Part shown: piece by piece, positions 16,977-42,155 of the stretch
Position numbering within the stretch: the stretch's first letter is position 1
Layout of the letters: every line of letters begins with the position of its first letter
Sequence record: OZ346219.1
DNA length: 64,000 bases
Reading direction: 5' to 3' (one strand)
From: a phage
Program-made: the position numbers and the translations under genes
Notes under the pieces: model-generated
What the model saw: the letters and a program-made list of their open reading frames with translations, nothing else
Told to the model about the DNA's origin: nothing
Database searches by the model: none

Positions 16977-17005
16977 AGTATAGGGGATCTCGCGATCCCC
17001 GTCAA
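16977..17005 (-). promoter_or_regulatory. Sigma70-like early promoter with stem-loop spacer
   Basis: Minus strand TTGACG-GGGATCGCGAGATCCCC-TATACT; 17-nt palindromic spacer. Confidence 0.55.
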
Positions 17006-17009
17006 GCAT

Positions 17010-17537
17010 TTATTTTAAATTTTTTCGAATGTAGTCAGACCATTCCTTCCCTGTCAGTTCGGTCCCATTCTGGAAACTGAAATATTCATACGGCATCGAG
17101 TCAAGATAAAACAGGATCATACATCGCGCCATATAATACCAATCACGATTAAAGTAAACTACGTTATCGCCAGTACCATCAGCACCTTTATCATAACCAT
17201 CGCGGGTACGGGCGACCCATTGAATAGTATCATTTTTCTCACGGATCGTAACAGGTTCCCAATATCCAGCACATCCAGCATGACCACACGAACAAGTAAG
17301 GAAATATTGTCCTTTTGCTTTGTTGTCGTCCCATTCACGATGGATTGGTTCGATCTCGTGAAACAGTGCTAAGCAATCATGATTATGCAACACTGGCTTA
17401 CCATCAATCAATGCATGGAATGTATACAAACGACCCGTAGACAAATAGCTATCCTCACGCTCAACCAGTTCAATAGCAATCTTTTTAGCTCGTTCTTTGT
17501 GTCGTTGTGCTTTACGCTTACGGTTTAATGATTTCAT
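17010..17537 (-). CDS. Hypothetical protein
   Basis: ATG 17537 with GAGGTGA SD; basic N-terminus, Cys/His-rich middle. Confidence 0.45.
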   Translation of the reverse strand: MKSLNRKRKAQRHKERAKKIAIELVEREDSYLSTGRLYTFHALIDGKPVLHNHDCLALFHEIEPIHREWDDNKAKGQYFLTCSCGHAGCAGYWEPVTIREKNDTIQWVARTRDGYDKGADGTGDNVVYFNRDWYYMARCMILFYLDSMPYEYFSFQNGTELTGKEWSDYIRKNLK

Positions 17538-17554
17538 ATTCACCTCACACATTA

Positions 17555-18094
17555 TCAAAGGTCGCGATATAGTACATTATGAAAATGAGAACTTGCATTA
17601 CCAATATTGTAGATAATAAATTCTTCATCCGGCGCTTGCGCTACAAATTGAGTATGAGCAACCGCCACAACCTTAAAAATACGATCCGTGATCTTGTGTT
17701 TAATTTCTGCCCCTACTTCCATAGGAACATATTCATTTGTTTCTGTTTCAGTCGCAAAACAGCCATCTTCTTCATAAGCACGAACAAATCGATCGCAATC
17801 AGTACGCTTAACAAATTCAAGAGTATACAATTCTCGTGAATTGTCGGTATAGACCAATACAGAATTATTATGATAGCGAATCACATACAGGTTATTATCA
17901 TCGTCAATTACGCAAAAGCTACGGATTCCTTCGCCTTTACTCCAGCAGATATTAACCACCGTTCCTCTAATAAAAAAACTTTCCTTTAAATTAAAACTAG
18001 TCAATGTGCTAGCGTGCATTTTAACAACAACACCATCGCCAATTTCCAGTTTACGAAGTTTAACTTCTTTGTTCAGTACACAAAACATCATCAT
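17555..18094 (-). CDS. Hypothetical protein
   Basis: 179-aa ORF; GAGAGGA SD; first gene after promoter 18124-18151. Confidence 0.45.
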   Translation of the reverse strand: MMMFCVLNKEVKLRKLEIGDGVVVKMHASTLTSFNLKESFFIRGTVVNICWSKGEGIRSFCVIDDDNNLYVIRYHNNSVLVYTDNSRELYTLEFVKRTDCDRFVRAYEEDGCFATETETNEYVPMEVGAEIKHKITDRIFKVVAVAHTQFVAQAPDEEFIIYNIGNASSHFHNVLYRDL

Positions 18095-18123
18095 GTTGTC
18101 CTCTCGTTGTTTTCGATGTGAGC

Positions 18124-18151
18124 ATTATACATTAGCTAATCATGTTGTCAA
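18124..18151 (-). promoter_or_regulatory. Sigma70-like early promoter
   Basis: Minus strand TTGACA-N16-TATAAT immediately after the nrdD terminator. Confidence 0.6.
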
Positions 18152-18159
18152 CACCCCAA

Positions 18160-18190
18160 AACGAAAAAGCCGACCCTTTCGGATCGGCTG
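18160..18190 (-). terminator. Rho-independent terminator after nrdD
   Basis: Minus strand GCCGATCCGAAAGGGTCGGC then TTTTTCGTTTT. Confidence 0.65.
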
Positions 18191-18194
18191 AAAT

Positions 18195-20057
18195 TTACAT
18201 GTGCTTAACGCGGTTTACCATCTCGGAGTGTTTCCCGTGGTTGAATGGACGCAGATCAACAGATCCAAGATATCCACTAACGCGACGGATAACATTCATC
18301 TTTTCCAGATTGTCATTACCGCAATCAGGACAAACAAAACCAGACTCGGTCGCTCTCATTTCCTTAGTAGATCCGCATACATGACATACATCAGAAGGAG
18401 TATTAACACCGAAGTAGTGCAATTTATCCATTGCATAGTCTACTACAGTTTCAAGACCTTTCAGGTTGTTTTTCATGTCTGGGAACTCAACATAAGAGAT
18501 CATGCCACCGGACGCCAGCCAGTGATAATCTTTCTCAAAGTCAATTTTCTCAAATGGAGTGACTTTCCGGTCTACGTCAAGGTGGAATGAGTTGGTGTAC
18601 CAGTCTTTATCGGTAGCACCCTTAACAATACCAAATTGCTCTCGGTCCAGTCGATTAAATCGATAGCAAAGGCTCTCGGCTGGAGTGCCGTAAAGACTAA
18701 ACCCAAGTCCGGTTTCGTCCTTCCATTTTTCAGTATAATGACGCAAGATCTTAAGAATATGTTTACCGTATCGCTGCGCATCTTCCGAATCAAACGGATG
18801 AACACCAAACAGGACGCTCAATACCTCATGTAAACCAATATATCCAAGAGAGATACTAGCGCGACCATCTTTCAACACTTCCAAAATTTCATCGTTTTGA
18901 TGAATACGGAAAAACGCACCTTCGGTATACAGCACCGGAGCAACATTGGCTTTAGCCCCTTTTAAAGCGTCTACGCGACTCATGAGCGCATCAAAGCAAA
19001 TAGGCATACGATTGGCTAGCTCTTGTTCGAATAGCTCAATTCTGCGCATTACAGACGCTTTACCAGCACGACGCGCGGCAATAAGGGCAATACGCGGAAG
19101 ATTCAGGGTCACAACACCCAAGTTATTACGTCCGTCTAATACTTCTTCGCCTTTCTCATTATGCCACACACCCAGGAAGCTACGACAACCCATCGGGCTA
19201 ACCGGAACACTAGATCCGGTGATACTACGGTTATTCTTCGCAGAGATATAATCAGGGTAAAGACGCTTACTAGAACATTCCAATGCAAGTTGCTTAATGT
19301 CGTAGTTCGGATCTTCCGGTTTAAGGTTTAATCCTTCTTCTAAGAACATCACCAGCTTAGGAAACACCGGAGTGATACCATCTTTACCTAAACCTTTAGT
19401 TCGAACGTTCAGGATCGCTTTCTGAATCAGTTTTTCTTCCCAGCTAGTACCCATACCAAAGGTTAAAGTCACAAAAGGCGTTTGACCGTTGGTGGAGAAC
19501 AAAGTGTTGATTTCATATTCCAACGCTTGATACCCGTCTAAAGTTTCTTTTTCTGTCTTCTCTTGTGCATAGAGAGTATCAGCTTTGATTCCGTAGGTTT
19601 CGGCATCAGCAAGGTGTTTATGATATGTTTTCTCAACATACGGTGCTAACACCTGATCGATGTTTGCGATTGTGGTCCCGCCATATTGATGACTTGCCAC
19701 CTGTGCGATAATTTGAGCGGTTACAGCACAAGCAACGCCGATTGATTTCGGACTTTCGATTTGTGCGCTACCCAATTTAAAACCATTCTCTAACATGTCT
19801 TTGAGATTAACAAGACAGCAGTTAGTAAACGGCATAGCGGGTGCATAATCCATATCATGATAATGAATGTCACCGTCTACATGCGCTTTATAGATGTGCT
19901 CAGGTAACACGGTTTTAGCAATCTGTTTAGACACAGCACCAGCAATCAGATCTCGACGTGTCGGGAATGTTCGCGCGTCTTTGTTCGCGTTCTCTTTGCT
20001 TACTTCGTTTTCTTTACCCGTTGCGATCTCTGTAATGTCTTTGATTAGTTTTTCCAT
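18195..20057 (-). CDS. nrdD: Anaerobic ribonucleoside-triphosphate reductase (class III)
   Basis: 620 aa; C-terminal CPDCG zinc site and glycyl-radical region (RVSGYLG); uninterrupted; AGGTGA SD. Confidence 0.95.
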   Translation of the reverse strand: MEKLIKDITEIATGKENEVSKENANKDARTFPTRRDLIAGAVSKQIAKTVLPEHIYKAHVDGDIHYHDMDYAPAMPFTNCCLVNLKDMLENGFKLGSAQIESPKSIGVACAVTAQIIAQVASHQYGGTTIANIDQVLAPYVEKTYHKHLADAETYGIKADTLYAQEKTEKETLDGYQALEYEINTLFSTNGQTPFVTLTFGMGTSWEEKLIQKAILNVRTKGLGKDGITPVFPKLVMFLEEGLNLKPEDPNYDIKQLALECSSKRLYPDYISAKNNRSITGSSVPVSPMGCRSFLGVWHNEKGEEVLDGRNNLGVVTLNLPRIALIAARRAGKASVMRRIELFEQELANRMPICFDALMSRVDALKGAKANVAPVLYTEGAFFRIHQNDEILEVLKDGRASISLGYIGLHEVLSVLFGVHPFDSEDAQRYGKHILKILRHYTEKWKDETGLGFSLYGTPAESLCYRFNRLDREQFGIVKGATDKDWYTNSFHLDVDRKVTPFEKIDFEKDYHWLASGGMISYVEFPDMKNNLKGLETVVDYAMDKLHYFGVNTPSDVCHVCGSTKEMRATESGFVCPDCGNDNLEKMNVIRRVSGYLGSVDLRPFNHGKHSEMVNRVKHM

Positions 20058-20101: not shown

Positions 20102-20596
20102 TTATTTTACCAGTTCTGCTAATTCTTTTTCTTTAGCTTCTAGTTCAGCTTTAAGCTGTTTAATCTCTTGTCGCTTCTTATTAGCGGCTTCCTGCTTACT
20201 ATTTCGGATAACCTGATCTAGATACAACTCCCAATCCTGAATATTTTTGATAATGTATCCGTCAACATTAATTGGTCGGAGATTCAGTACAGCTTCCAGT
20301 TTAGTCGCAAAAACTTTAATTGCTGGCGTGAAGTATTCATATTCGTTATCTTCAAACCAATAACCTAGACTTGCATTATCAATACGAAGACGAAGTTCAA
20401 GATCAAGGTCTTTATCTTCGGTGTAAAGATCTTTCACCTGACCCAGCGAACTAACAACAACTTTAAAACGAATTTTATCTACACCACCAAACACATCAGT
20501 AAGTATACCAGCAATTGAGCTATTAGCGCAAGATTGGTCGCTGAATGCGTCAAGGTTTTCTTTAGTTACAGTATACCAAACATCTTGTACCCACAT
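20102..20596 (-). CDS. WEVGKTY-family paralogue (coiled-coil C-terminus)
   Basis: 164 aa; resembles 13967-14443 (FATKLEAV / FATKLQRD; KQLKAELEAKEKELAELVK); driven by promoter 20628-20656. Confidence 0.5.
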   Translation of the reverse strand: MWVQDVWYTVTKENLDAFSDQSCANSSIAGILTDVFGGVDKIRFKVVVSSLGQVKDLYTEDKDLDLELRLRIDNASLGYWFEDNEYEYFTPAIKVFATKLEAVLNLRPINVDGYIIKNIQDWELYLDQVIRNSKQEAANKKRQEIKQLKAELEAKEKELAELVK

Positions 20597-20627
20597 AATA
20601 TAATCCTCTCGTTGTTTAGATGGGAGT

Positions 20628-20656
20628 ATCTTACTACTCCCGTTTCATCATGTCAA
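20628..20656 (-). promoter_or_regulatory. Sigma70-like early promoter with stem-loop over -10
   Basis: TTGACA-N17-TAAGAT; GGGAGTA/TACTCCC inverted repeat spans the -10. Confidence 0.5.
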
Positions 20657-21219
20657 GCGTTAAATGACTTTTGGATCTCTTTCAGTTCAGCTACTTTATC
20701 GGCGCTGAATTTAGCGTAGGTATCATGTCGAATAATTTCACTTTCAAGAAAGGTTTCCAGCCGAGATCTATTTTCAATAAGGAACTCTTTCAGGTCTTCC
20801 GCGTTCTTGATAAAGATTTTATTGTCGGTAATGTCATCTTCAATCGCAAAGGAGATAGAGCGAACTTTACCAAACAAGTTAATCAGATCTTCCAGAGATT
20901 CTTCTTTCTTAACTGGTTTCATTTCTTCAAACTGCTTTTTAGTGATGCGTTTAAAGTATTTGCGCTCGCTTGCATCAATCATGATTGACGCACCCTCATA
21001 ATCATGAGTTTCTACCAAATACACTTTACCCATAACATTAACCGTAAGAACTTTAAAGCCCCTGTGAAGCACACCATACAGGAACTTGTTATGTTGTGGG
21101 TAGCGTTTAACAAATTCCTCTGCGGACTCAGCATTACGGAAAGTGTAATAACGACCTCGTTCAAAAACAGCATCAGTTGAAGACTTAACCGGATACAATT
21201 TATACGTTTTCTGTACCAT
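20653..21219 (-). CDS. WEVGKTY-family paralogue (divergent)
   Basis: ATG 21219 with GAGGATTATATT leader; same three-part architecture as 15751-16278. Confidence 0.45.
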   Translation of the reverse strand: MVQKTYKLYPVKSSTDAVFERGRYYTFRNAESAEEFVKRYPQHNKFLYGVLHRGFKVLTVNVMGKVYLVETHDYEGASIMIDASERKYFKRITKKQFEEMKPVKKEESLEDLINLFGKVRSISFAIEDDITDNKIFIKNAEDLKEFLIENRSRLETFLESEIIRHDTYAKFSADKVAELKEIQKSFNA

Positions 21220-21233: not shown

Positions 21234-21506
21234 TCATTTCACTAATTGAACAGCACGGAACAGAATGCGCTCACACGGAAGCAGCATAAATTCCCAACGC
21301 GGATCAAAGTCTTTAGCGGTGTATGTTTTCCCATCAACCGAGATTTCACTTACATAACCAACAGGTGACACTTTAAGAACAGTAAACCCATTCTTGATGA
21401 CTTCGTAGGTATCTTTCACCCCTTCGTATTCATCATCTAAGAAGTCTTTATGTGCTTGCTCAGATTTAAAAACATAGGCAACACCGGATTTAAACATCTT
21501 ACGCAT
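21234..21506 (-). CDS. WEVGKTY-family N-domain-only paralogue
   Basis: ATG 21506 with AAGGAGAATCAACA leader; VDGKTYTAKDFDPRWEF. Confidence 0.4.
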   Translation of the reverse strand: MRKMFKSGVAYVFKSEQAHKDFLDDEYEGVKDTYEVIKNGFTVLKVSPVGYVSEISVDGKTYTAKDFDPRWEFMLLPCERILFRAVQLVK

Positions 21507-21537
21507 TGTTGATTCTCCTTCTTGATTAGATGGGAGT

Positions 21538-21566
21538 ATTTTACTACTCCCATTTCTTATTGTCAA
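21538..21566 (-). promoter_or_regulatory. Sigma70-like early promoter with stem-loop over -10
   Basis: TTGACA-N17-TAAAAT; same GGGAGTA/TACTCCC hairpin as 20628-20656. Confidence 0.5.
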
Positions 21567-21569
21567 CTA

Positions 21570-22043
21570 CTATCTTAATCTTTGTATGAATTGTTTCTTA
21601 TACTTCTTCGTGATCTCTTCTCTTGTATCAGCGTCACAATAATCGAAACCTTCTGCGTCCATAATAGCAACCATCTCCGCGCGTGTCAAGCGTGAAAATC
21701 GTTTTACTTTATCAACAGCATATTGAGGATGTAAATGATTGTTGGTGTAGTCTCCTTTGATGTAATTAACATAGTTTGTAGCCCAAACAACGAAATCAGC
21801 ACCTAAAGCACCAACACCAAACCGTTTAAAGTCTCCGGTCAACGATCCTTCTAGGCGGTTGCAACACGAATGAAGCAATCCCCTTACGCGGCCTTGCCCT
21901 TTCCCATCTAGATCGTGGTCGTGGTCAAGATGGTTTTTGCTCATATCCTCAAAAAGTGGCAATTGACAAAGGGGGCAAATGCCCCCCTGTTTTTCGAATA
22001 GTTCTTGTTTGTACTCTTTAGCACTCTTAGCAGTCAGTAACAT
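21570..22043 (-). CDS. 49: Endonuclease VII (Holliday-junction resolvase)
   Basis: 157 aa from ATG 22043, same length as T4 endo VII; CPLCQ...HLDHDHDL...KVRGLL and C-terminal KKQ..R.L match recalled T4 gp49; GGAGGGTGA SD. Confidence 0.85.
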   Translation of the reverse strand: MLLTAKSAKEYKQELFEKQGGICPLCQLPLFEDMSKNHLDHDHDLDGKGQGRVRGLLHSCCNRLEGSLTGDFKRFGVGALGADFVVWATNYVNYIKGDYTNNHLHPQYAVDKVKRFSRLTRAEMVAIMDAEGFDYCDADTREEITKKYKKQFIQRLR

Positions 22044-24419: not shown

Positions 24420-24728
24420 TTATTTCACGTTAACGCCGTTATCAATCCAGCCGACGCTATTTGGTTTAACAGTTTTACCATAGGATGCATACTTAATCAA
24501 GCATGGTTTAACATCATTATCAAATCTTCCTAAACGTACTCCCAAATCAGGAATATCCATGTATGCGGCTTTATATCCCCATGTGCCATATTCAGAATCA
24601 ATCTCAACCGGACGGCCTTTAAAAGCATACACTACACCGTGACGGTCAACGATAACATAGCAATAACCAGCCGGAAGATACACAGTTTAGCCGTAAACTT
24701 TAACTGGAGTAGCAGAAGAGATAAACAT
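24420..24728 (-). pseudogene. Small gene interrupted by an in-frame TAA at codon 14
   Basis: ATG 24728 with GAGGATTATATT leader; reads MFISSATPVKVYG-TAA-TVYLPAGYCYVIVDRHG... in one frame; track ORF 24420-24683 starts at GTG 3 nt after the TAA. Confidence 0.4.
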
Positions 24729-24798
24729 AATATAATCCTCACATCGTTCATTTGATGCGGTCATTATATGATAACCGCATTTTCATGTCAACAGTTTT

Positions 24799-25137
24799 TT
24801 AAAAATCTTCTTCCGGTTTATATCGACCGTCATCGACTGGTTTTGGACTGAATCCTTTATGCGTGCGCGGCTTCGCTTCCGGTTTACCAGCAATCATCAA
24901 ACCAAAACATTTCAGCCCCTTATAACACATAACAATATCAACCACGGTCCACGTTATAGGCCAGACGATTGCAGCAATACAAAATGCTCCTGTATCGACC
25001 TCTTTGGTGTCCTTGTCGAATCTGGCATACAAGCAGAATACTAGATACGAGATCATTGCACCAGTAATCCAGATATAAAGTACATTAACAATATCTTGTG
25101 TTGTCAAATTGTCCTCCTTACATGTCTTGCAGTGCAT
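24799..25137 (-). CDS. Hypothetical membrane protein
   Basis: Hydrophobic helices (IVNVLYIWITGAMISYLVFCLY, AFCIAAIVWPITWTVV); start uncertain (track 25173 is TTG; ATG at 25161 or 25137). Confidence 0.35.
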   Translation of the reverse strand: MHCKTCKEDNLTTQDIVNVLYIWITGAMISYLVFCLYARFDKDTKEVDTGAFCIAAIVWPITWTVVDIVMCYKGLKCFGLMIAGKPEAKPRTHKGFSPKPVDDGRYKPEEDF

Positions 25138-25396
25138 AAAAGCATTTTTCTTCGTAGTCATAGAAAATGTCAAAGTATGCTTTTTCTACATACTCGCCAT
25201 TGATCCAAGCGGCAGTAACAATCAGAGTGGTCCAGGTAGATCCGCTCTCAACGGTAAAGGTTTTAATACCCAGCTTCGCTGCCAAGTCGAACGCAAACCG
25301 GACGCAACCACGACAGGAAGTGATGTTGGAAGTTTTGATTTTAAAGCCACCGCGAGTTTTAGAAATTTCTACTTTAGCGAAAGACAGGTTGCTCAT
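25118..25396 (-). CDS. Hypothetical protein
   Basis: ATG 25396 with AAGGAGAATCAAA leader downstream of promoter 25439-25467. Confidence 0.4.
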   Translation of the reverse strand: MSNLSFAKVEISKTRGGFKIKTSNITSCRGCVRFAFDLAAKLGIKTFTVESGSTWTTLIVTAAWINGEYVEKAYFDIFYDYEEKCFYALQDM

Positions 25397-25438
25397 TTTG
25401 ATTCTCCTTAAGAAAGTGTGTTTCGTTTTGATGTGTGT

Positions 25439-25467
25439 AGTATAGGGGATCACCGATCCCCTGTCAA
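25439..25467 (-). promoter_or_regulatory. Sigma70-like early promoter with stem-loop spacer
   Basis: TTGACA-GGGGATCGGTGATCCCC-TATACT. Confidence 0.55.
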
Positions 25468-25483
25468 CAACTTTTTTATGATT

Positions 25484-25738
25484 TTAGTGAATTAACTCTA
25501 CACCAAAATGAGGCACAGAGAACGCCTTACAAAACACATATTCATCATGTTTAGGAATCGCCCCTAACCGCTCTATTTCGCTCGCTAACACTATAAACTG
25601 TTTATCTGGTGCATATGCCTTGCGTGCTTCAACAACGCACGGAAAACGCGTTTTAGAGAGTTCTGGATAGTTTTCCGAATCCAGCAGGACAATGAATACC
25701 CTGTTACATTGATTGTAGAATCCTGTTTTTGATTTCAT
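25484..25738 (-). CDS. Hypothetical protein
   Basis: ATG 25738 with GAGGAA SD inside upstream gene end. Confidence 0.4.
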   Translation of the reverse strand: MKSKTGFYNQCNRVFIVLLDSENYPELSKTRFPCVVEARKAYAPDKQFIVLASEIERLGAIPKHDEYVFCKAFSVPHFGVELIH

Positions 25739-27408: not shown

Positions 27409-27699
27409 TCAAATTGTAGTTTTGCGAAGATGGTCATTACATGCTTTTAATGCATCGGTCGCGGTGTCATAGCGAGTATTATCATAGCACCAATAACCAT
27501 CTGTCAACTGATAAATTAATCCATCCTTTTTAGCTTCGATGAAAGATAACTCTTTGAAAGTTTCTACTTTCTTTGCTGATAATCCACGGTCACGGCGCTT
27601 ATAGAGTTTAGCCAAAATGCGTTCAGCTTGTTCCTCTTTATCACCAGACAGATCCCAGATGATGTTTCGGATATGCTTGATTAATTGTTCAGTGGTCAT
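27409..27699 (-). CDS. Hypothetical protein
   Basis: ATG 27699 with AAGGAGAATCAAAG leader downstream of promoter 27729-27756. Confidence 0.45.
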   Translation of the reverse strand: MTTEQLIKHIRNIIWDLSGDKEEQAERILAKLYKRRDRGLSAKKVETFKELSFIEAKKDGLIYQLTDGYWCYDNTRYDTATDALKACNDHLRKTTI

Positions 27700-27728
27700 C
27701 TTTGATTCTCCTTAGTTGGTATGCGTGC

Positions 27729-27756
27729 ATTATAGCATTGTGATTATCTTTGTCAA
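27729..27756 (-). promoter_or_regulatory. Sigma70-like early promoter
   Basis: TTGACA-N16-TATAAT after terminator 27771-27795. Confidence 0.6.
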
Positions 27757-27770
27757 CACCCAAAAACAAA

Positions 27771-27795
27771 AAAGGCTACCCCGAAGGATAGCCCA
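27771..27795 (-). terminator. Rho-independent terminator after the Gly-rich gene
   Basis: Minus strand GGGCTATCCTTCGGGGTAGCC then TTTTTTGTTTTT. Confidence 0.6.
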
Positions 27796-27800
27796 TAAAA

Positions 27801-28577
27801 TTACACGCGAGCACCGTAGATCGTGCCTACTTTATCCCAGCGAGGGGCATTACCAGTAACAGCTTTACCCGCAGCACCACCGTTATATTCTGTACCGTTC
27901 CCCTGAGTATTACATCTTCCTCCAGCAGCACCAACGTTACCGCCCGCACCACCTGTATATGCACTAAGAGACCCCTTACCAACAGATCCTTTACCCGGAG
28001 CGGAAATGGAGCCAGCGGTTGCACCAGAACCCATATTAGAGGAAGACCCGGCAGCACCGAATGGGCGACCACCGCCGCCACCAAATACTAGTCGACCCCT
28101 GTTACCGCCGCCACCGCCACCACCGCCGCCAGCGATAGCACCGTTATTTGTAATTCGTAGACGTGTACCGATAGCGTTATTGATTGCGTTTCCACCAGCA
28201 GCGCCAGCAGCGTTACTACCACCATTACCCCCACGTCCGTAGACAGTCACACCGGAGTTAATGATCAATGTTACATATTCGTTTGTTAACGAGCTAGGGA
28301 AGTCAAGACAAGGAACGCCAGTAGATTGGGAAACAATATTACCTGTGATAGTAATTACTACCGGAGTAGATCCTTGTGCTTTCATCCAGTTAATAAGAGT
28401 GTCTTTATTGTAAGAGTTACTAGCACCAATGCTATAATGAATCTCTTTAGAACGTCCGACCATTGCTGACATATACGCCGGACGACCTAAGCGAACAGCT
28501 TGCATTGCGGCGCTCATCCACCGTTGACCAGTCTCGGACACAGCAGATGATCCTACCCATCCAGAAGATATTGCCAT
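27801..28577 (-). CDS. Glycine-rich protein of unknown function
   Basis: 258 aa; ~120-aa N-domain then ~140 aa of Gly-rich low complexity (GGGGGGGGGNRGRLVFGGGGG); GAGGAA SD; locally GC-rich. Confidence 0.55.
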   Translation of the reverse strand: MAISSGWVGSSAVSETGQRWMSAAMQAVRLGRPAYMSAMVGRSKEIHYSIGASNSYNKDTLINWMKAQGSTPVVITITGNIVSQSTGVPCLDFPSSLTNEYVTLIINSGVTVYGRGGNGGSNAAGAAGGNAINNAIGTRLRITNNGAIAGGGGGGGGGNRGRLVFGGGGGRPFGAAGSSSNMGSGATAGSISAPGKGSVGKGSLSAYTGGAGGNVGAAGGRCNTQGNGTEYNGGAAGKAVTGNAPRWDKVGTIYGARV

Positions 28578-28631: not shown

Positions 28632-28853
28632 TTAGATGACCTCTGCTTCACCATCCAGGAAGAAAGACCATGTTTTGTTAGGATAGCGAAGCGCCCATGA
28701 TTCAGCAGTTTTAACACCCGCTTCGAACAATTGACGGCTGGTTACTTTAGCCATACCATCTTCGATGGCAACGTTTTCAATAATCATCGGGTACTTAGCG
28801 CCACGCATGAAACCGAAACCAGCGGAAGATTTGATAATTTTAACAGTTGCCAT
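28632..28853 (-). CDS. MKIEIID-family small protein (divergent)
   Basis: MATVKIIKSSAGFGFMRGAKYPMIIENV; TAGGAGAATCAAAA leader downstream of promoter 28895-28923. Confidence 0.45.
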   Translation of the reverse strand: MATVKIIKSSAGFGFMRGAKYPMIIENVAIEDGMAKVTSRQLFEAGVKTAESWALRYPNKTWSFFLDGEAEVI

Positions 28854-28894
28854 TTTTGATTCTCCTAGAAAGTGTATCTCGTTTCGATGGGTGT

Positions 28895-28923
28895 ATTATG
28901 CAATAACACCGGATCGCTGTCAA
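28895..28923 (-). promoter_or_regulatory. Sigma70-like early promoter
   Basis: TTGACA-N17-CATAAT followed by conserved leader ACACCCATCGAAAC. Confidence 0.55.
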
Positions 28924-28940
28924 CACTTTCTAAGAAATTT

Positions 28941-29225
28941 TTAAACTAATCGAATATAGCCCAGAATTTCAGCACTTTTAGCCAGATCTAAAACTTCCCA
29001 TTCAAGGTCTCCATAGTCATAATTTGCAACCATCAACTGACCATTTTTCATGCAGCAATCATGAGAGAAAATTTGCCCCGCATAAACTACGATAGTGATA
29101 AACTTTCCTGATTCTGGCGGTGTGGAAGACAAAGCGACCATATGACCATTCAGCTTAGTCACCAGTGATGGAACAATAAAATTCGGGCTTACCTTAATAC
29201 CGTTAAATTCGTTTGTGTCTTTCAT
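28941..29225 (-). CDS. Hypothetical protein
   Basis: 94-aa track ORF. Confidence 0.4.
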   Translation of the reverse strand: MKDTNEFNGIKVSPNFIVPSLVTKLNGHMVALSSTPPESGKFITIVVYAGQIFSHDCCMKNGQLMVANYDYGDLEWEVLDLAKSAEILGYIRLV

Positions 29226-30106: not shown

Positions 30107-30135
30107 TTTGATTCTCCTTTGTTGTCGATGTGTGC

Positions 30136-30164: not shown

Positions 30165-30171
30165 CACCTAA

Positions 30172-30200
30172 AAACGAAAAAGCCACCCTTTCGGATGGCT
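30172..30200 (-). terminator. Rho-independent terminator
   Basis: Minus strand GCCATCCGAAAGGGTGGC then TTTTTCGTTTTT. Confidence 0.65.
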
Positions 30201-30433
30201 TTTGATTATATTTTATTCACGTCCATTTGTATAGTAGTGTTTGAATCGACCTTTGCTAAACTAGTTAAACATAGTAACCAATTCACCATCCCTTTCCAAT
30301 GATAACCCTTCCTCGTCTTAGACGGGTCTTCCGATTCGGCAGTAATTGAACACGCGAAAGTATGAGGAAGCCAAATAGTTGTGTTAATGCTAGTATTCTT
30401 TTACTTCTGGTATGCATCCCACGGTGACTAACA

Positions 30434-33308: not shown

Positions 33309-33899
33309 TCAATAGCGTTTAGTCTTAAGAATGCCTTTACTCTTTAGATGGTTAGCCTTTTTTAGTACGTCATCAGCATAACCTAATCCGGCTTTATAGT
33401 TCCATCCAGCATTGTAAGAAGCTAGCGCGAGTCGGATATTACCGTTTCGAACATCCAGCCAGTATGCTAACTCATCCATCGCGTAGAATGCAGAAACCTC
33501 GCGATTCATGATAAAGTTGATAGTCTGGCGATCACTCATTTTAACACCGCGCTTTGCATTTTTCGCTTTCACCGTTTTAAGGTAATTTTGAAATAATCCA
33601 TAAGCATGATGATTTTTCTTTGGTGCTAAGTTTGCACCCGCGCTTGATTCTTGCCATGCGATACCCGCCAGGATGTGACCTAAACCCTTTCCGTTATAGC
33701 GAATATTCGGATGGTCCTTTTTCAACTTACCGCTTTTCTCGAATTGTTCGCCGTATTGATAGGCGAAATGTAAATTATCTAGTTGGTGTGCTGTAAAGTT
33801 GTCTATCGGCGCTTTTTTGATCGGTGCGCTAGTCGATGCGTGTGTAGCACCAACGGCTAGTGACAGACTCAATACTATCGCTTTTAGAACTTTTAACAT
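33309..33899 (-). CDS. Lytic transglycosylase (SLT domain) with signal peptide
   Basis: 196 aa; signal-like N-terminus; SLT motifs IAWQESS, YGLFQ, SYNAGWN; AGGAGA SD. Confidence 0.65.
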   Translation of the reverse strand: MLKVLKAIVLSLSLAVGATHASTSAPIKKAPIDNFTAHQLDNLHFAYQYGEQFEKSGKLKKDHPNIRYNGKGLGHILAGIAWQESSAGANLAPKKNHHAYGLFQNYLKTVKAKNAKRGVKMSDRQTINFIMNREVSAFYAMDELAYWLDVRNGNIRLALASYNAGWNYKAGLGYADDVLKKANHLKSKGILKTKRY

Positions 33900-33984
33900 T
33901 AATTTCTCCTGTTTGGCTTAACTTTCTGATTCCATAATATAGCCATATCACCAGAAAGTCAAGCATTATTTTAACCAATCTCCA

Positions 33985-34407
33985 TTATTGGTCTACCTTC
34001 AAAACAACAGCCGACATTTTACCCGCCAGTCGTTTTGGATTCTCTATAATCATTCGGCAGCATAGACCGTGATATGGCTTACCCTCTTCGATTAGATCTA
34101 CTGTCATCCCGATCCACATGTTACCGTCAGTAATTTCTAATCGATTCGGTCGGTCTTCCATTTTCAGGAAGTCGAAGATCTCCGGCAAACGAGTTTCTAT
34201 CTTATTGAATAGTTCCATTGTCTTATGTTCATCGATATGACGATCGGTTAGACGGTCGATCATATGCGGACTAAAGCGAATGAAAATATACTCACCATAA
34301 CCATCATTCAAGCACTTTTCTTTGATCTTCGCATTGGTTTTGCGCATTTCGGTTTCGAAGAATCTACGCAGCTTACTACGGCGAACATGTACGTTAATTG
34401 TTTCCAT
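33985..34407 (-). CDS. Hypothetical protein
   Basis: ATG 34407 with AAGGA SD. Confidence 0.4.
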   Translation of the reverse strand: METINVHVRRSKLRRFFETEMRKTNAKIKEKCLNDGYGEYIFIRFSPHMIDRLTDRHIDEHKTMELFNKIETRLPEIFDFLKMEDRPNRLEITDGNMWIGMTVDLIEEGKPYHGLCCRMIIENPKRLAGKMSAVVLKVDQ

Positions 34408-34411: not shown

Positions 34412-34747
34412 TTATCCTTTCTTAAACAAATTGCGAATCCAGTATACAAACGGGATTTCTTTAAACTTGAATTTCTCTATAGTTAATTCTTTAGTAGCAA
34501 GATGAATACCATAAGCATCATGTGTCACGATATGCCATTTTCTATAGTCCAAATGTGAACAACCGTCTGGATCTAGGTTAATAAGAGTTTCTCGCTCACT
34601 AGGATTATTTTTCCACAATTTTGTAATAGGATCGCACATAATTCGACCTAGCGTACCATGAATAATCTCACAACGGTAAAGTTTTCCAGCAGTGAGATAG
34701 GCGCACCCGTCATAGTCGGTATAAACAAACACTTCTTTAACACTCAT
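34412..34747 (-). CDS. CSHL-family protein (long form)
   Basis: ATG 34747 with AAGGAG SD downstream of promoter 34776-34804; DPDGCSHLDYRKWHIV. Confidence 0.4.
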   Translation of the reverse strand: MSVKEVFVYTDYDGCAYLTAGKLYRCEIIHGTLGRIMCDPITKLWKNNPSERETLINLDPDGCSHLDYRKWHIVTHDAYGIHLATKELTIEKFKFKEIPFVYWIRNLFKKG

Positions 34748-34775
34748 TTTAATACTCCTTTGTTTCGATGGGGGT

Positions 34776-34804
34776 ATATTACTACCCCCGTTTTGTTGTG
34801 TCAA
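34776..34804 (-). promoter_or_regulatory. Sigma70-like early promoter with stem-loop over -10
   Basis: TTGACA-N17-TAATAT; GGGGGTA/TACCCCC hairpin. Confidence 0.5.
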
Positions 34805-35065
34805 CTACTTTTTCAAGATTTTTTTAATTGCGTTCCAAAGACCTTTATTCTCAGGTTGTTTTGGTTCTTCGATCAGTGTCCAGGTTCGACCGTCTAAGTG
34901 TGCGCAATTTTTAAGACAAATAAAAATCTGGTGTCCTTTATCATCACGGATATAACCACTATTCGCAAATCTTTCATGTGGTGTATATTCATACAGTGTA
35001 TTTGGTGTAATATACTTGCGGTTACTATAAGGTGTCATCACATACATCATGGTACTAACTCCCAA
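34805..35065 (-). CDS. CSHL-family small protein
   Basis: 86-aa track ORF; KNCAHLDGRTWTLI. Confidence 0.4.
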   Translation of the reverse strand: MGVSTMMYVMTPYSNRKYITPNTLYEYTPHERFANSGYIRDDKGHQIFICLKNCAHLDGRTWTLIEEPKQPENKGLWNAIKKILKK

Positions 35066-38805: not shown

Positions 38806-39132
38806 TTAGAAAGAAACAGTTTTCAAGAAATCCAGATTTTCAGTGCCGAAAACAGAAAAGTAGTGTTTTCCTTTTTCGGTTTTAGAGAAAGCGATTGTCT
38901 TCTCTACATGGTGACGGAAGCCAGACAGACGATCACCCAGGTCAAGGCGGCAAGCGTAAGTAGTGCCGTTTTCGAAAGTAACCTCGATTTGAGTTTTGTC
39001 ATATTCGCTTTCATAGGCTTTTGCTGCCGCGTCCTGTGCTTTACGCTCGAAGTCTTCGAAGTGGAATACTTCGTTTGCGTTAGCGAATACAGAAGATTCA
39101 GAGAAGATAACTTTAACAGATACTGGTTTCAT
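38806..39132 (-). CDS. Hypothetical protein
   Basis: 108-aa ORF; AAGGAGTATCAAA leader downstream of promoter 39175-39203. Confidence 0.45.
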   Translation of the reverse strand: MKPVSVKVIFSESSVFANANEVFHFEDFERKAQDAAAKAYESEYDKTQIEVTFENGTTYACRLDLGDRLSGFRHHVEKTIAFSKTEKGKHYFSVFGTENLDFLKTVSF

Positions 39133-39174
39133 TTTGATACTCCTTAGTAGTTCGTGTTTCGTTTCGATGGGTGT

Positions 39175-39203
39175 ATTATGCTATACACCCTATCGCGTGT
39201 CAA
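39175..39203 (-). promoter_or_regulatory. Sigma70-like early promoter
   Basis: TTGACA-N17-CATAAT plus conserved leader. Confidence 0.55.
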
Positions 39204-39211
39204 CAACTTTT

Positions 39212-39400
39212 TTAGTCTTTTTTCAAAATTTTTAAGGCAGTTTCTACAGCACCTTTCCAACCCTCCCACATAATGGACATAGTAATGAAGTTAAAGCACC
39301 CGCAGGAATCAACCTTTTTAGAGATAAACCATTCAACAAATCCTTCGCTCATACCATGCTCTTTAGCGGATTCGCGTAATTGTTCAATTTGGTCTTCCAT
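39212..39400 (-). CDS. Hypothetical small protein
   Basis: 62-aa track ORF. Confidence 0.35.
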   Translation of the reverse strand: MEDQIEQLRESAKEHGMSEGFVEWFISKKVDSCGCFNFITMSIMWEGWKGAVETALKILKKD

Positions 39401-39610: not shown

Positions 39611-39838
39611 TTAAAGTTGTTCTGCAATGTATGCGGTGCATTTGCGGAGTTTAGCCATAGCACCACCTTTCATGTCGCTTGCACCTACAAGGTTCATGAT
39701 CTCTAAGCGATCAGCCGGATTCAGTCTAGTAGCCCAGATCTGGTTAGCCAGTTCCATTTTACCCATCTGCGGTTCCATCTCAAACAGTTCGCGCTCAAAG
39801 TCGATAATTTCTTTTGCTGCGTCTTTAAAGTTAATCAT
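39611..39838 (-). CDS. Hypothetical small protein
   Basis: GGGAGAATCAAA leader downstream of promoter 39868-39896. Confidence 0.4.
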   Translation of the reverse strand: MINFKDAAKEIIDFERELFEMEPQMGKMELANQIWATRLNPADRLEIMNLVGASDMKGGAMAKLRKCTAYIAEQL

Positions 39839-39867
39839 TTTGATTCTCCCGTTTCGTTGATGGTTGT

Positions 39868-39896
39868 ATTGTAGGGGAGTTATCCTCCCCTGTCAA
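39868..39896 (-). promoter_or_regulatory. Sigma70-like early promoter with stem-loop spacer
   Basis: TTGACA-GGGGAGGATAACTCCCC-TACAAT. Confidence 0.55.
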
Positions 39897-39904
39897 CACT
39901 TTTA

Positions 39905-40090
39905 TCAGAAATATGCAATATAGTTTGCCAGTCCTACAGAGTCATCATTCGGCATTGCTTTTACTGCCAGTTCAAACCCTGCTTCAACTTTCTGTTTAGC
40001 GGATTCTTCGTTATAACCCCAGATTACCAGAATAGCTACTACGTTTTCTTTGCTTACTGCTTTCAGTGCTTTAGTGATGCGACGTGCCAT
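39905..40090 (-). CDS. Hypothetical small protein
   Basis: ACGGAGAATCAAATT leader downstream of promoter 40137-40165; begins MARR. Confidence 0.4.
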   Translation of the reverse strand: MARRITKALKAVSKENVVAILVIWGYNEESAKQKVEAGFELAVKAMPNDDSVGLANYIAYF

Positions 40091-40136
40091 AATTTGATTC
40101 TCCGTTTAAGAAAGTGTGTTTCGTTTCGATGGGTGT

Positions 40137-40165
40137 ATTATGCTATAGGCCGGATCTGGTGTCAA
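40137..40165 (-). promoter_or_regulatory. Sigma70-like early promoter
   Basis: TTGACA-N17-CATAAT after terminator 40187-40218. Confidence 0.55.
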
Positions 40166-40186
40166 CAACTTTTTTAAAAAAATTTT

Positions 40187-40218
40187 AGGCAATAAAAAAG
40201 CCACTCCGAAGAGTGGCT
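40187..40218 (-). terminator. Rho-independent terminator
   Basis: Minus strand GCCACTCTTCGGAGTGGC then TTTTTTATT. Confidence 0.65.
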
Positions 40219-40366
40219 TATAGGGAAGGTAGCGAATCTTCCTTGTCTCCAACCTGCTAGCGGCCTAGCAAGTTAATGCTTTAGCGTACCGGATCGCCCA
40301 TACGCCGCAATAAATGCGGCTAGGTGACGTCCAAATCATTCTAACCGCGCTGTCTTTAGTTCACTA

Positions 40367-41088: not shown

Positions 41089-41286
41089 TCATAGCGTACA
41101 AAGCCATTTAAAAGCACCACATAAAGCGATCAAAAGACTAGGTATAAACGAGATTACAACAAGACCAAAAAAATCATCTAAGGTAACACCGGAATAGCTA
41201 CCTACTGTAACAACACCGATCATCAGACACAGAAAGAAAACAAATGCAAGCATAAACAAAGTATTGCTAAACAGTTTAGTGATCAT
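41089..41286 (-). CDS. Small membrane protein
   Basis: ATG 41286 with GTGGGGTG SD (track start 41331 overlaps upstream gene by 56 nt). Confidence 0.35.
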   Translation of the reverse strand: MITKLFSNTLFMLAFVFFLCLMIGVVTVGSYSGVTLDDFFGLVVISFIPSLLIALCGAFKWLCTL

Positions 41287-41479
41287 TAGACACCCCACGA
41301 CGATCAATTTCAAAAACTTTTTTATCATCAACGAAGCATGTCACAACTGCCTCGTTGACTTCCGCAAATTGTTGTGTTACCCACTTAAGGTCAGAGCGAA
41401 ACAATGTTCTATTAATAACAAATGTTTTACCGCTCTTATCCTTACCCATAAATTTTGCTTTAACCATATCAAATTCCAT
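41276..41479 (-). CDS. Hypothetical small protein
   Basis: 67-aa ORF; AAGGTGATA SD overlapping upstream stop. Confidence 0.4.
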   Translation of the reverse strand: MEFDMVKAKFMGKDKSGKTFVINRTLFRSDLKWVTQQFAEVNEAVVTCFVDDKKVFEIDRRGVSNDH

Positions 41480-41488
41480 ATTATCACC

Positions 41489-41647
41489 TTATTTGCTAAT
41501 CGCTAAACCCAATCCGAAGAGAGCACCCGATGCTACAGTATACCCGAAAGTTTCAAAGGCAGTAAAGATATCTAAGCCACCAGCTAACAGAGTTGCAGTA
41601 AACAGAGTACCAGCTACGAACATAAAAGTTTTACCGATAAATTTCAT
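41489..41647 (-). CDS. 52-aa membrane microprotein
   Basis: Read by hand, below track cut-off: MKFIGKTFMFVAGTLFTATLLAGGLDIFTAFETFGYTVASGALFGLGLAISK; AAAGGAGAATCAAA leader downstream of promoter 41679-41707. Confidence 0.4.
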   Translation of the reverse strand: MKFIGKTFMFVAGTLFTATLLAGGLDIFTAFETFGYTVASGALFGLGLAISK

Positions 41648-41678
41648 TTTGATTCTCCTTTCGTTTGTTTGTTGGGGT

Positions 41679-41707
41679 ATCTTACTACCCCCGTTTCATG
41701 TTGTCAA
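41679..41707 (-). promoter_or_regulatory. Sigma70-like early promoter with stem-loop over -10
   Basis: TTGACA-N17-TAAGAT; GGGGGTA/TACCCC hairpin. Confidence 0.5.
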
Positions 41708-41713
41708 CTATTT

Positions 41714-42088
41714 TTAAGAATATTTTACTTCGTCTACAATGTCTTTCATGACATTGATTTCCATTCCGGTCAGAACACGTTGGAACATGTGCTGAACATA
41801 CGCTTTCAGATATTCATTTGATGGCTTGCTATCAAAAGTCTTTTTAGTGTAGTAGTCATCACCGAAAGCTACTGTAATTACATTTTCGTCGTCGTTCCAA
41901 GCGATATAAGCAAATTTGCCGTTATCCCAGAAGCGAGCACTAATTGCTACTTTTGTTGAATCGAATCCTACTTCGCTGTGAGATTCAAGAACTACTTGCG
42001 TGCCAGTTTCTTTATGAATGTAGTAGCGGGATACTAAGTCAAAGTTACGGGTGTAGTGACATTCGAATTTATCTTTAAACAACATCAT
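41714..42088 (-). CDS. Hypothetical protein
   Basis: 124-aa ORF downstream of promoter 42127-42155. Confidence 0.45.
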   Translation of the reverse strand: MMLFKDKFECHYTRNFDLVSRYYIHKETGTQVVLESHSEVGFDSTKVAISARFWDNGKFAYIAWNDDENVITVAFGDDYYTKKTFDSKPSNEYLKAYVQHMFQRVLTGMEINVMKDIVDEVKYS

Positions 42089-42126
42089 TTTTGATTCTCC
42101 TAAGTGTGTTTCGTTTCGATATGTGC

Positions 42127-42155
42127 ATTATGCTATAGTCGTTTATGGTTGTCAA
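42127..42155 (-). promoter_or_regulatory. Sigma70-like early promoter
   Basis: TTGACA-N17-CATAAT after terminator 42166-42195. Confidence 0.55.

Follow-up and report, generated by a model that had tools for sequence, protein, structure and literature searches.

Promoter and stem-loop cassettes in the early region of an RB49-like Krischvirus

The early region of this phage holds a series of similar promoters, many with a hairpin in or beside them, which raises the question of whether they are copies of one known kind of cassette or strong promoters that happen to look alike. The first-pass annotation had counted about 15 of them between 16977 and 42155 and likened them to the promoter early stem-loops (PeSLs) of T4-type phages. 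The window (i.e., the whole 64,000-nt stretch of record OZ346219.1 that was analysed) comes from a Krischvirus, an RB49-like T4-type coliphage, with 96-99% identity to kaaroe, RB49, Phi1 and GEC-3S. The likeness holds: with a probability of roughly 0.93, the repeated units are PeSLs, cassettes in which RB49-type T4-like phages combine a terminator with a promoter. Given PeSLs were described in RB49 and phi1 in 2010, and the phage studied here is a close relative of both, this is a correct rediscovery with nothing new in kind.

A repeated promoter family

Near-consensus sigma-70 promoters are approximately 20-40 times commoner in the window than expected by chance. The pattern TTGACA-N15-18-TATAAT has six exact matches against 0.14 expected, and TTGACA-N15-18-YAWAAT has 12 against 0.6, counts that were reached in none of 100 shuffles. 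The catalogue comprises 21 cassettes (Table 1), 16 of which lie within 16.9-42.2 kb. All sites named in the first-pass annotation, including the plus-strand one at 57025-57052, have their TTGACA and (T/C)ATAAT-like boxes where it placed them, although the series extends beyond its range, to 9550, 2744, 16 and 47725.

In the anchored alignment, the -35 box is TTGACA in 16 of the 21 sites and one mismatch away from it in the other five, and the spacer measures 16-17 nt throughout. The copies have up to ~85-95 bp in common, well beyond the hexamers, with conservation starting ~10 nt before the -35 and covering the leader and the ribosome-binding site (RBS). What they share begins with A/T-rich DNA, then TTGACA, N17 and (T/C)ATAAT, and continues past a discriminator rich in C to the leader ATCGAAACGAAACAC and GGAGAATCAAAATG; immediately 5' of TTGACA stand A or T runs plus a conserved AAAAAGTTG or TTTTTAGGTG. 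An unbiased repeat search returned the cassettes as its top dispersed families (D1, D2, D5, D7 and D8), with 77-90% similarity along 61 nt for copies separated by kilobases. The cassettes belong to no described RNA family, since Rfam, searched at gathering thresholds over the whole window, gave no match; ARAGORN found no tRNA there.

The cassettes fill intergenic gaps of 54-111 nt, one cassette per gap, in the order upstream stop codon, A/T-rich UP-like stretch, promoter, C-rich discriminator, stereotyped leader (25-45 nt), and equally stereotyped RBS with start codon, the 3' end reading GGAG...ATG. Copies are in direct orientation, one per 0.3-4.6 kb. The ORFs behind the sites have 50-196 aa and a hypothetical annotation in relatives; the one behind 24763 has a premature stop in this phage, and the 85-aa ORF 3' of 57025(+) has no Pfam match. 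Gene 43 (family B DNA polymerase, ORF 33-2711; Pfam DNA_pol_B) has a cassette on either side, at sites 16 and 2744, and site 47725 is overlapped by TATAAATA, a plus-strand late-promoter motif that precedes gene 53. The GEC-3S annotation places promoters at the orthologues of 16977 and 33934. Most Krischvirus genome records leave the cassettes unmarked.

Five further near-consensus sites (16379, 21661, 33264, 36994 and 13819) were excluded, being inside genes and having no stem-loop, leader/RBS homology or GEC-3S promoter annotation. The site at 35687-35714 (TTGACA-N16-TAACAT) is likewise not a cassette, as it lies within the nrdC.11 coding sequence and has no hairpin.

These promoters and terminators might be ordinary ones that evolved independently, alike through selection for the sigma-70 consensus and with no special part in shuffling. 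Selection for strong promoters would produce such hexamers, four of the sites just excluded (16379, 21661, 33264 and 36994) show that near-consensus sites also arise inside genes, and most indels of the window are unconnected with cassettes. However, the similarity goes far beyond the hexamers, taking in the leader and the RBS with its ATG on one side and AAAAAGTTG or TTTTTAGGTG on the other, and the 25439 cassette is near-identical over ~85 nt to RB49 PeSL211/210, a copy from another region of the genome. Together with the clean exchange between two copies and the movement of loop alleles described below, this makes independent origin scarcely credible.

Table 1. Cassettes of the window, named by site, with extent, strand and main features.
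Site	Extent	Strand	Features
16	16..43	-	Perfect TTGACA-N16-TATAAT, TG before -10; just 3' of DNA polymerase gene; remainder beyond window
2744	2709..2799	-	Upstream of gene 43; perfect TTGACA-N17-TATAAT
9550	9522..9584	-	Spacer hairpin, TTGACG CGGGGAgaaaTCCCCG T TATACT; -15.4 kcal/mol, z -3.7
16977	16932..17015	-	Spacer hairpin (GGGGATCgcgaGATCCCC); upstream of 50-aa ORF
18124	18092..18200	-	Upstream terminator (18168-18189) + TTGACA-N16-TATAAT; after nrdD
20628	20594..20658	-	Hairpin across -10; chimera of two frd.2-flanking PeSLs
21538	21504..21575	-	Hairpin across -10, 9-bp stem
24763	24726..24804	-	Perfect consensus promoter; 10-bp hairpin encloses -10 (AUGCGGUUAU/AUGACCGCAU)
25439	25394..25489	-	Spacer hairpin (GGGGATCggtGATCCCC); near-identical to RB49 PeSL206/205 and PeSL211/210
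27729	27697..27806	-	Upstream terminator (27773-27794); after gp38 adhesin gene
28895	28851..28946	-	Weak, non-significant hairpin over -10 (GGUGU/ACACC), z -0.35
30136	30104..30210	-	Upstream terminator (30178-30203)
33934	33897..33990	-	Weaker member, TTGACT-N17-TATTAT; between regB and vs.1
34776	34745..34810	-	Hairpin across -10 (GGGGGUA/UACCCCC)
39175	39130..39217	-	8+4-bp hairpin encloses -10 (GGGUGUAU/AUACACCC); -16.1 kcal/mol, z -3.6
39868	39836..39910	-	Spacer hairpin (GGGGAGgataaCTCCCC), z -5.5
40137	40088..40225	-	Upstream terminator (40198-40219), 33 nt A/T, then promoter; spacer fold z +0.6
41679	41645..41719	-	Hairpin across -10; 6 bp here, 7 bp in relatives
42127	42086..42205	-	Upstream terminator (42172-42193)
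47725	47709..47763	-	Early-type TTGATA-N16-TATAAT within 8-bp inverted repeat (AGCACCCT/AGGGTGCT)
57025	56967..57084	+	Upstream terminator; inside baseplate gene block

Stem-loops of the cassettes

One clear stem-loop is present in 18 of the 20 scorable cassettes. Four have it in the spacer and seven across the -10/discriminator; in one it lies around the -35, and in six it is a canonical terminator upstream of the promoter. Hence 12 cassettes have an internal hairpin, six an upstream terminator, two neither, and none both (Fisher p = 0.0007). For 11 of the 12 internal hairpins the fold has z <= -2.1, and their MFE ranges from -10.6 to -29.4 kcal/mol; the six upstream terminators have z values of -1.8 to -3.1. 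The value of -29.4 kcal/mol (z -5.9) belongs to site 2744, whose long stem-loop straddles the -35 and the spacer and appears only with the upstream flank included in the fold.

The first-pass annotation had recognised seven hairpin sites. Its three palindromic spacers (16977-17005, 25439-25467 and 39868-39896) fold as 7-8 bp G/C stems of -13.9, -13.8 and -21.0 kcal/mol, respectively (z -2.3 to -5.5), and its four GGG(G/A)GTA...TAC(T/C)CCC hairpins across the -10 (20628, 21538, 34776 and 41679) fold at -10.6 to -15.3 kcal/mol (z -2.1 to -3.9). The stem at 41679 is as short as it is because the window has ACCCCA where four relatives have ACCCCC. Seven is nevertheless too few, as the same range contains at least 9-10 internal hairpins, with 24763 (-12.9 kcal/mol, z -3.5) and 39175 added and a weaker case at 33934, where a moderate stem covers the spacer, the -10 and the start region (z -2.4). 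The statement that the rest directly follow a terminator is correct for 18124, 27729, 30136, 42127 and 57025(+), but not for 24763, 28895, 33934 and 39175; at 40137 the terminator exists, though ~33 nt upstream. The spacer of 40137 resembles the 39175 hairpin in decayed form. Given the phage encodes Dam, the paired GATC of two spacer palindromes was also considered, and is not special: GATC is over-represented window-wide (362 occurrences, 229 expected) and is absent from two of the four spacer hairpins.

In a comparison of five genomes, 7 of 166 stem positions are variable, against 14 of 83 spacer positions of terminator-class promoters (p = 0.0013), and the changes seen in stems preserve pairing (G-U to A-U at 24763 and 21538). 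Since these genomes are 94-99% identical, orthologues showed one-sided changes only, and compensatory changes are readable only between paralogous copies: GGGAGTA/TACTCCC vs GGGGGTA/TACCCCC, and CGGGGA/TCCCCG vs GGGATC/GATCCC. These values provide evidence that the stems are under purifying selection.

The six upstream stem-loops have the G/C stem and U-tract of an intrinsic terminator, whereas the internal hairpins do not: by our own count, those across the -10 are followed by 0-2 U in 8 nt, and the spacer-class stem by UAUACU. The hairpins across the -10 could, then, be something other than sense terminators, stopping antisense (plus-strand) transcripts or merely stabilising processed 3' ends. 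Plus-strand U-rich tracts do follow the hairpins, giving terminator-like sites at 34767-34792, 21528-21555 and 41674-41691, with 3-6 U in the next 8 nt on the antisense side vs 0-2 on the sense side (own count), and the Makalu_003 annotation has two plus-strand terminators in gaps holding orthologous cassettes. Yet the plus strand of 16-42 kb has no evident promoter, plus-strand late-promoter motifs were found at 47727 and 58539 only, and the A-rich spacer behind the antisense U-tract also occurs in hairpin-less cassettes. Moreover, internal hairpins are missing exactly where a sense-strand terminator exists, an argument for the equivalence of hairpin and terminator in sense transcription. We therefore consider an antisense or stabilising role unlikely. 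Because they have no U-tracts, the internal G/C hairpins may also be taken together as a distinct insulator class, those across the -10 stopping antisense transcripts or capping processed 3' ends, with selection for one structure per cassette. This seems quite improbable; if true, it would explain hairpin loss beside a canonical terminator and the later decay of the spacer (39175 vs 40137).

As PeSLs, the cassettes would be fired by unmodified host RNA polymerase at the start of infection, as shown elsewhere for near-identical copies. Judging by the geometry, the single stem-loop would be transcribed only by polymerase arriving from upstream, and would therefore not be a leader structure of the cassette's own transcript. 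It would end, attenuate or cap the upstream transcript, after which the cassette would restart transcription, so that the small ORFs would sit in insulated units. This role is based on published reporter data for one spacer-class copy, and the distribution of hairpins and terminators in the window supports it; our results support the action on upstream transcripts that has been published for the stem-loop. The first-pass annotation would have regarded its proposal as refuted if the hairpins acted only as terminators of upstream genes. Given that upstream termination is the published function of PeSL stem-loops, such an outcome would not refute the PeSL identification.

Recombination between cassettes

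The suggestion that these repeats drive modular shuffling is borne out by one clear case. The cassette at 20628 is a recombinant of the two PeSLs flanking frd.2 in RB49, Phi1, GEC-3S and Makalu_003, and this 1.17-kb gene is precisely deleted here (1170 nt). At the junction, the upstream part of the frd.2 PeSL is joined to the start of ORF057, with the crossover inside a 23-nt identical leader/RBS/ATG segment. An insert is kept at the frd.2 position in 59 of 59 database relatives with a match, and the deletion junction was found in one piece in no database record. In principle, the loss could be an assembly collapse across the 65-bp repeat. The orthologous 25439 hairpin has differing loop alleles in relatives, one of which equals the PeSL211/210 copy; loop alleles are exchanged between copies. 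Makalu_003 has a diverged allele of the upstream gene (RB49p054) that ends at the 16977 cassette, its divergence starting ~30 nt before the -35.

Most indels with respect to relatives lie off PeSLs, however, and represent either homing-endonuclease insertions or exchanges at short repeats of other kinds; hence PeSL recombination is one contributor to plasticity in the window, not the main one. One indel breakpoint, the end of an inserted HNH gene, falls exactly at the rejected site 35687-35714.

Given ~85-95-bp direct-orientation copies recur every 0.3-4.6 kb, the homologous recombination machinery could delete, insert or swap ORFs between cassettes, as in the single case seen here and, by extension, in general. 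A different possibility is that the G-run/C-run stem-loops act mainly as DNA, being the target of a dedicated binding or recombination protein that makes mini-circles in an integron-like manner, with termination a side effect. It was raised by the authors of the PeSL study, who report encapsidated mini-circles (PMC2839356), and the stems' outer GGGG/CCCC is conserved beyond what base pairing by itself requires. Nonetheless, the frd.2 crossover lies in the leader/RBS segment rather than in the stem-loop, and upstream-terminator cassettes belong to the same repeat family although they have no G-run/C-run hairpin. The stems also differ in sequence from copy to copy yet remain paired, suggesting a structure rather than a sequence-specific site. 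Finally, no integrase or recombinase was found among eight window ORFs screened against Pfam, and none is reported for the RB49/phi1 group (PMC2839356). A dedicated DNA target thus appears highly improbable, and homologous exchange between PeSLs is preferred.

PeSLs were already known: the 2010 work in this phage group described and named them, tested them in part and put them forward as shuffling drivers, and the 2014 work added other T4-like phages. The contribution of the window is modest, namely a clean new natural PeSL-PeSL exchange with loss of a gene conserved in relatives, a quantitative sign of exactly one stem-loop per cassette, and the evidence of purifying selection on stems. The results are useful for Krischvirus genome annotation.

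Comparison with known systems

The closest system is that of RB49 and phi1 (Arbiol, Comeau, Kutateladze, Adamia and Krisch 2010, Genome Biol Evol 2:140; PMC2839356), members of the same genus in which PeSLs were first defined and of which 51 and 52, respectively, are reported. Both sets combine the same TTGACA-N17-TATAAT with the same G-run/loop/C-run stems, placed in the spacer, over the -10, over the -35 or upstream; the published definition also admits a downstream stem-loop (PMC2839356). In both, copies share the A/T-rich upstream region, the RBS and the 3' ATG, are conserved over a long stretch (~100 bp in the published definition, up to ~85-95 bp in the window), occupy intergenic positions before small ORFs of unknown function in the hyperplastic region, flank gene 43 on both sides, and are associated with indels. 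Individual window copies are orthologous or near-identical to RB49 ones, and 25439 matches PeSL206/205 and PeSL211/210 almost base for base.

Promoter and terminator activity in vivo, as well as mini-circles, are reported for RB49 copies (PMC2839356). As a promoter, PeSL206/205 gives ~13,000 Miller units; the PeSL211/210 stem-loop, the one spacer-class stem-loop for which termination is demonstrated, terminates about as well as rrnB T1 in a plasmid reporter (PMC2839356). The RB49 early consensus is consistent with 5'-end mapping of early transcripts (PMC1524935). Where the T-even early consensus has GTTTAC at the -35, with T at -33, the window cassettes have TTGACA, with G at the equivalent position, which is a known RB49 deviation (PMC1524935).

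The PeSLs/PmSLs of PST/T4 and nt-1/KVP40 (Comeau, Arbiol and Krisch 2014; PMC4122927) have the same terminator-promoter architecture and indel association, but differ in their promoters (TTTACW...TAYWAT and TTGYVH...TAWWAT), their A/T-richer stems, and a stem-loop just upstream of the promoter. By these features, the window cassettes are assigned to the RB49 type and not to the PST/T4 or nt-1/KVP40 types. Specific to the window are the frd.2 deletion and the weakened 41679 stem.

Integrons require an integrase and attC sites, whereas in the window the homology is supplied by the repeated regulatory cassette itself. Integron cassettes and phage "morons" (Hendrix et al. 2000) are otherwise alike in that a small gene travels with its own promoter and terminator.

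Promoter cassettes of the early region

When 16-40 kb and 40-64 kb of the window were compared with the phage collection by megablast, 96-98% of the query aligned at 96-99% identity. Top matches are Escherichia phages kaaroe, RB49, Phi1, GEC-3S, ECD7 and FL37/38, which all belong to the "pseudo-T-even" RB49 group, genus Krischvirus. Judging by GC skew and ORF orientation, genes switch from the minus to the plus strand at ~47.75 kb. The interval highlighted by the first-pass annotation runs from nrdG/nrdD to gene 57B and contains many small hypothetical ORFs. The phage encodes a Dam methylase (22358-23170), and GATC is over-represented in the whole window (362 occurrences vs 229 expected from base composition).

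Exact TTGACA-N15-18-TATAAT was observed six times against 0.14 expected, and TTGACA-N15-18-YAWAAT twelve times against 0.6 expected. Neither count was matched by any of 100 shuffles, and all but one of the matches sit on the early-region coding strand. Cassettes (i.e., intergenic early promoter and stem-loop units) were located by simple ORF tiling, which delimits intergenic gaps, and by anchoring on both hexamers. This produced 21 cassettes, 16 of which lie within 16.9-42.2 kb, and every site named among the roughly 15 initially proposed is present. Orthologous positions in the GEC-3S record carry promoter and terminator annotations.

Coordinates of cassettes, by stem-loop class, and of insertions and deletions away from cassettes. 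Cassettes are labeled by the low coordinate of the -10 box and come from hexamer anchoring and the gap map.
Feature	Position	Strand	Remarks
Spacer hairpin	9550, 16977, 25439, 39868	-	7-8 bp G/C stems
Hairpin across -10 and discriminator	20628, 21538, 34776, 41679, 24763, 39175, 33934	-	10 bp at 24763; 8+4 bp at 39175; weaker at 33934
Hairpin straddling -35	2744	-	z -5.9
Canonical upstream terminator with U-tract	18124, 27729, 30136, 40137, 42127; 57025	-; + (57025)	~33 nt upstream at 40137
No clear class	28895, 47725	-	28895: weak stem only; 47725: 8-bp inverted repeat around it, 33-nt loop
Not scorable	16	-	remainder of cassette beyond window edge
HNH gene in RB49	10601		not at cassette
HNH gene in GEC-3S	between nrdC and dam		not at cassette
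NUMOD4/HNH_3 ORF, 141 aa, window-specific	35682-36107	-	homing-endonuclease type
NUMOD3 ORF with HNH-like sequence, 231 aa	47016-47711	-	ahead of gene 4; not in RB49, Phi1
342-aa ORF, CapR homology domain	44689-45717	-	between gene 2 and bidirectional terminator
Small Makalu_003 ORF			bracketed by 27-nt repeat of ribosome-binding region; not at cassette

When the anchored copies are compared, the likeness between cassettes reaches well past the hexamers. In order, a cassette comprises an A/T-rich stretch ending in AAAAAGTTG or TTTTTAGGTG, TTGACA, a spacer of 16-17 nt, (T/C)ATAAT, a C-rich discriminator (A/G)CACCC, a motif beginning CATCGAAACGAAACAC, and GGAGAATCAA(A)ATG. The element GGAGAATCAA occurs 11 times in the window, on the minus strand every time. 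An unbiased repeat search returned the cassettes as the top dispersed repeat families (D1, D2, D5, D7 and D8), with 61-90% identity over 45-61 nt.

Translation starts of another stereotyped type, GAGGATTATATTATG, which differs from the GGAGAATCAAAATG that most cassettes carry, lie on the minus strand, with six exact copies at 20594, 21217, 24726, 26297, 27396 and 38195 and one further copy with a single mismatch at 32924. Cassette 24763, whose promoter is a perfect consensus, precedes the orthologue of RB49p068 (102 aa); in this phage that ORF has a nonsense codon at position 14 (GAA to TAA, 24699-24701, minus strand). Near-consensus sigma-70 sites also occur within coding sequences (16379-16407, 21661-21689, 33264-33292 and 36994-37022, minus strand), agreeing at 11 of 12 hexamer positions. 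All four lack both a hairpin and leader homology and are unannotated in relatives; each may be a chance match or a promoter internal to the gene.

Stem-loop classes and their conservation

The cassettes were assigned to classes by RNA folding against shuffled controls, which sorts more of them into hairpin classes than the seven first counted; that number is thus too low, given internal hairpins also at 24763, 39175 and 33934 and, outside the interval first highlighted, at 9550 and 2744. The accompanying statement that the remaining promoters directly follow a terminator holds for the terminator-class sites other than 40137, where ~33 nt intervene, and fails for 24763, 28895, 33934 and 39175. 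In the six upstream-terminator cassettes the core is unstructured (MFE -2.3 to -3.7 kcal/mol, z at least +0.1), and an internal hairpin is present in 12 of the 14 cassettes that have no terminator (Fisher p = 0.0007). The spacers of 40137, 42127 and 30136 resemble a decayed 39175 hairpin.

Stem variability was assessed in the window, GEC-3S, RB49, Phi1 and Makalu_003. Variable columns number 7/166 in stems, 13/80 in the non-stem spacer of the same promoters, 14/83 in the spacers of terminator-class promoters, and 1/134 in the hexamers; stems and terminator-class spacers differ with p = 0.0013. Stem changes between genomes keep pairing (e.g., at 24763 G-U becomes A-U, and at 21538 A-U becomes G-U). 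Compensatory pairs are seen between paralogous copies in the same register, GGGAGTA/TACTCCC vs GGGGGTA/TACCCCC, and between CGGGGA/TCCCCG at 9550 and GGGATC/GATCCC at 16977.

Spacer hairpins and those across the -10 lie upstream of their own promoter's start site or are interrupted by it, and can therefore form only in DNA or in RNA reading through from upstream. The either/or relation to true terminators, together with stem conservation, supports a role on upstream transcripts. Internal hairpins have no U-tract (by our own count, those of the class across the -10 have 0-2 U in the 8 nt that follow), and because of this classical intrinsic termination is not established for that class. A minor alternative is that the hairpins serve antisense termination or 3'-end capping: on the antisense strand they score as terminator-like, with U-rich tracts after them, and the Makalu_003 annotation places two plus-strand terminators in intergenic gaps of orthologous cassettes, yet no plus-strand promoter motif is evident within 16-42 kb.

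The hairpin GGGGAGTAtaaaaTACTCCCC at 4720-4775 (minus strand; z -3.6), with GUUUU after it, has the stem sequence of the hairpins across the -10 but lacks a -35 box; it may represent half a PeSL (promoter-early stem-loop) or a plain terminator. At 47709-47763, divergent promoters overlap: TTGATA-N16-TATAAT on the minus strand uses the same bases as the late motif TATAAATA on the plus strand (47727-47734, ahead of gene 53), and the whole unit is bracketed by the 8-bp inverted repeat AGCACCCT/AGGGTGCT.

Between a small ORF and the terminator of cassette 40137, ~175 nt are non-coding (40195-40375, minus strand). Three hairpins and the terminator make up its fold (MFE -64.9 kcal/mol, z -4.0; none of 200 shuffles was as stable). 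The stretch is 97.5-99% identical across four relatives and has the late-promoter motif TATAAATA immediately ahead (40368-40375). No Rfam family reached threshold (top match 23.6 bits, E 0.054), and the stretch is a candidate late-expressed small RNA. Ahead of the 30136 terminator, ~260 nt are unannotated and moderately structured (30175-30436, minus strand; z -2.2); in Phi1 the 42-aa ORF084.1 is annotated there, with 153 nt in place of a 71-nt segment.

Exchange at cassettes and elsewhere

The window was aligned to RB49, Phi1, GEC-3S and Makalu_003. At 20594-20658, a 65-nt overlap junction, all four relatives hold an extra 1170 nt, the frd.2 gene, which in RB49 is flanked by a PeSL on each side. 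In the window, the frd.2 PeSL contributes its upstream flank, promoter and hairpin, which are fused to the first codon of ORF057, and the crossover lies inside 23-nt AACAACGAGAGGATTATATTATG, identical between both PeSL copies. It also falls within the translation-start motif GAGGATTATATTATG. The unbroken junction was found in no record of the phage collection; all 59 with a match show the halves apart or one half. Given that the gene is present in all relatives examined, the simpler reading of the alignment is that frd.2 was deleted in this phage's lineage.

At the orthologous 25439 site, the window and RB49 share the hairpin loop GGT, Makalu_003 has GCC, and GEC-3S and Phi1 have ACGT, the PeSL211/210 allele. 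In Makalu_003, RB49p054, the gene upstream of cassette 16977, is a diverged allele whose divergence begins ~30 nt upstream of the -35. Both are further traces of exchange.

Several indels fall elsewhere. The 141-aa ORF and a new terminator (36163-36182) stand in place of 1.4 kb in RB49, Phi1 and GEC-3S, comprising vs.6, a small ORF, vs.8 and the 5' part of nrdC.11, which appears truncated. The 231-aa ORF sits exactly between the promoter, ribosome-binding site and ATG and the gene 4 body, the gene 4 ATG being captured. The 342-aa ORF is present in Phi1 as ORF130.1 and missing in RB49 and Makalu_003; its junctions are at a short TTAA-type repeat beside two different hairpins. Hence, of the proposed modular shuffling, exchange at PeSLs is real in the window (frd.2), yet it is one mechanism among several, as a 2014 paper likewise states (PMC4122927).

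Direct repeats in coding sequence at 14697-16276 and 26223-26515 (families D3, D12 and D6) point to tandem paralogous small genes. At 38219-38625, the window has two 65-69-aa ORFs vs a single ORF in Makalu_003.

Comparison with published PeSL elements

PeSLs, described in RB49 and phi1, combine a promoter of sigma-70 consensus with A/T-rich sequence upstream and a G-run/C-run stem-loop at one of five positions; they reach from the stop codon upstream to the downstream Shine-Dalgarno and ATG, with ~100 bp conserved, and number ~51-52 per genome, mainly in hyperplastic regions ahead of ORFans (PMC2839356; PMC4122927). All defining features are matched, which supports the PeSL-like reading of the first-pass annotation: PeSL-type cassettes were already known, and the observation is confirmed with corrections. 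Mapped 5' ends of early transcripts are reported to fit the RB49 early consensus, including its T or C at -12 and its C at -3 to -1 (PMC1524935).

Two RB49 copies were assayed: PeSL206/205 showed promoter activity of ~13,000 Miller units, and the stem-loop of PeSL211/210 terminated about as well as rrnB T1 (PMC2839356). The PeSL206/205 core TTGACAGGGGATCGGTGATCCCCTATAAT is the 25439 core but for one -10 base, and PeSL211/210 has ~85 nt in common with the 25439 cassette, the main difference being the hairpin loop. The exact spacer-class core is found in only two IMG/VR contigs, with 4-5 copies each. In RB49 and phi1, gene 43 has PeSLs on both sides (PMC2839356; PMC4122927), as does the window's family B DNA polymerase ORF (892 aa, 33-2711), which lies between cassettes 2744 and 16. 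The agreement is point for point, and the window cassettes are PeSL elements of the RB49 and phi1 type.
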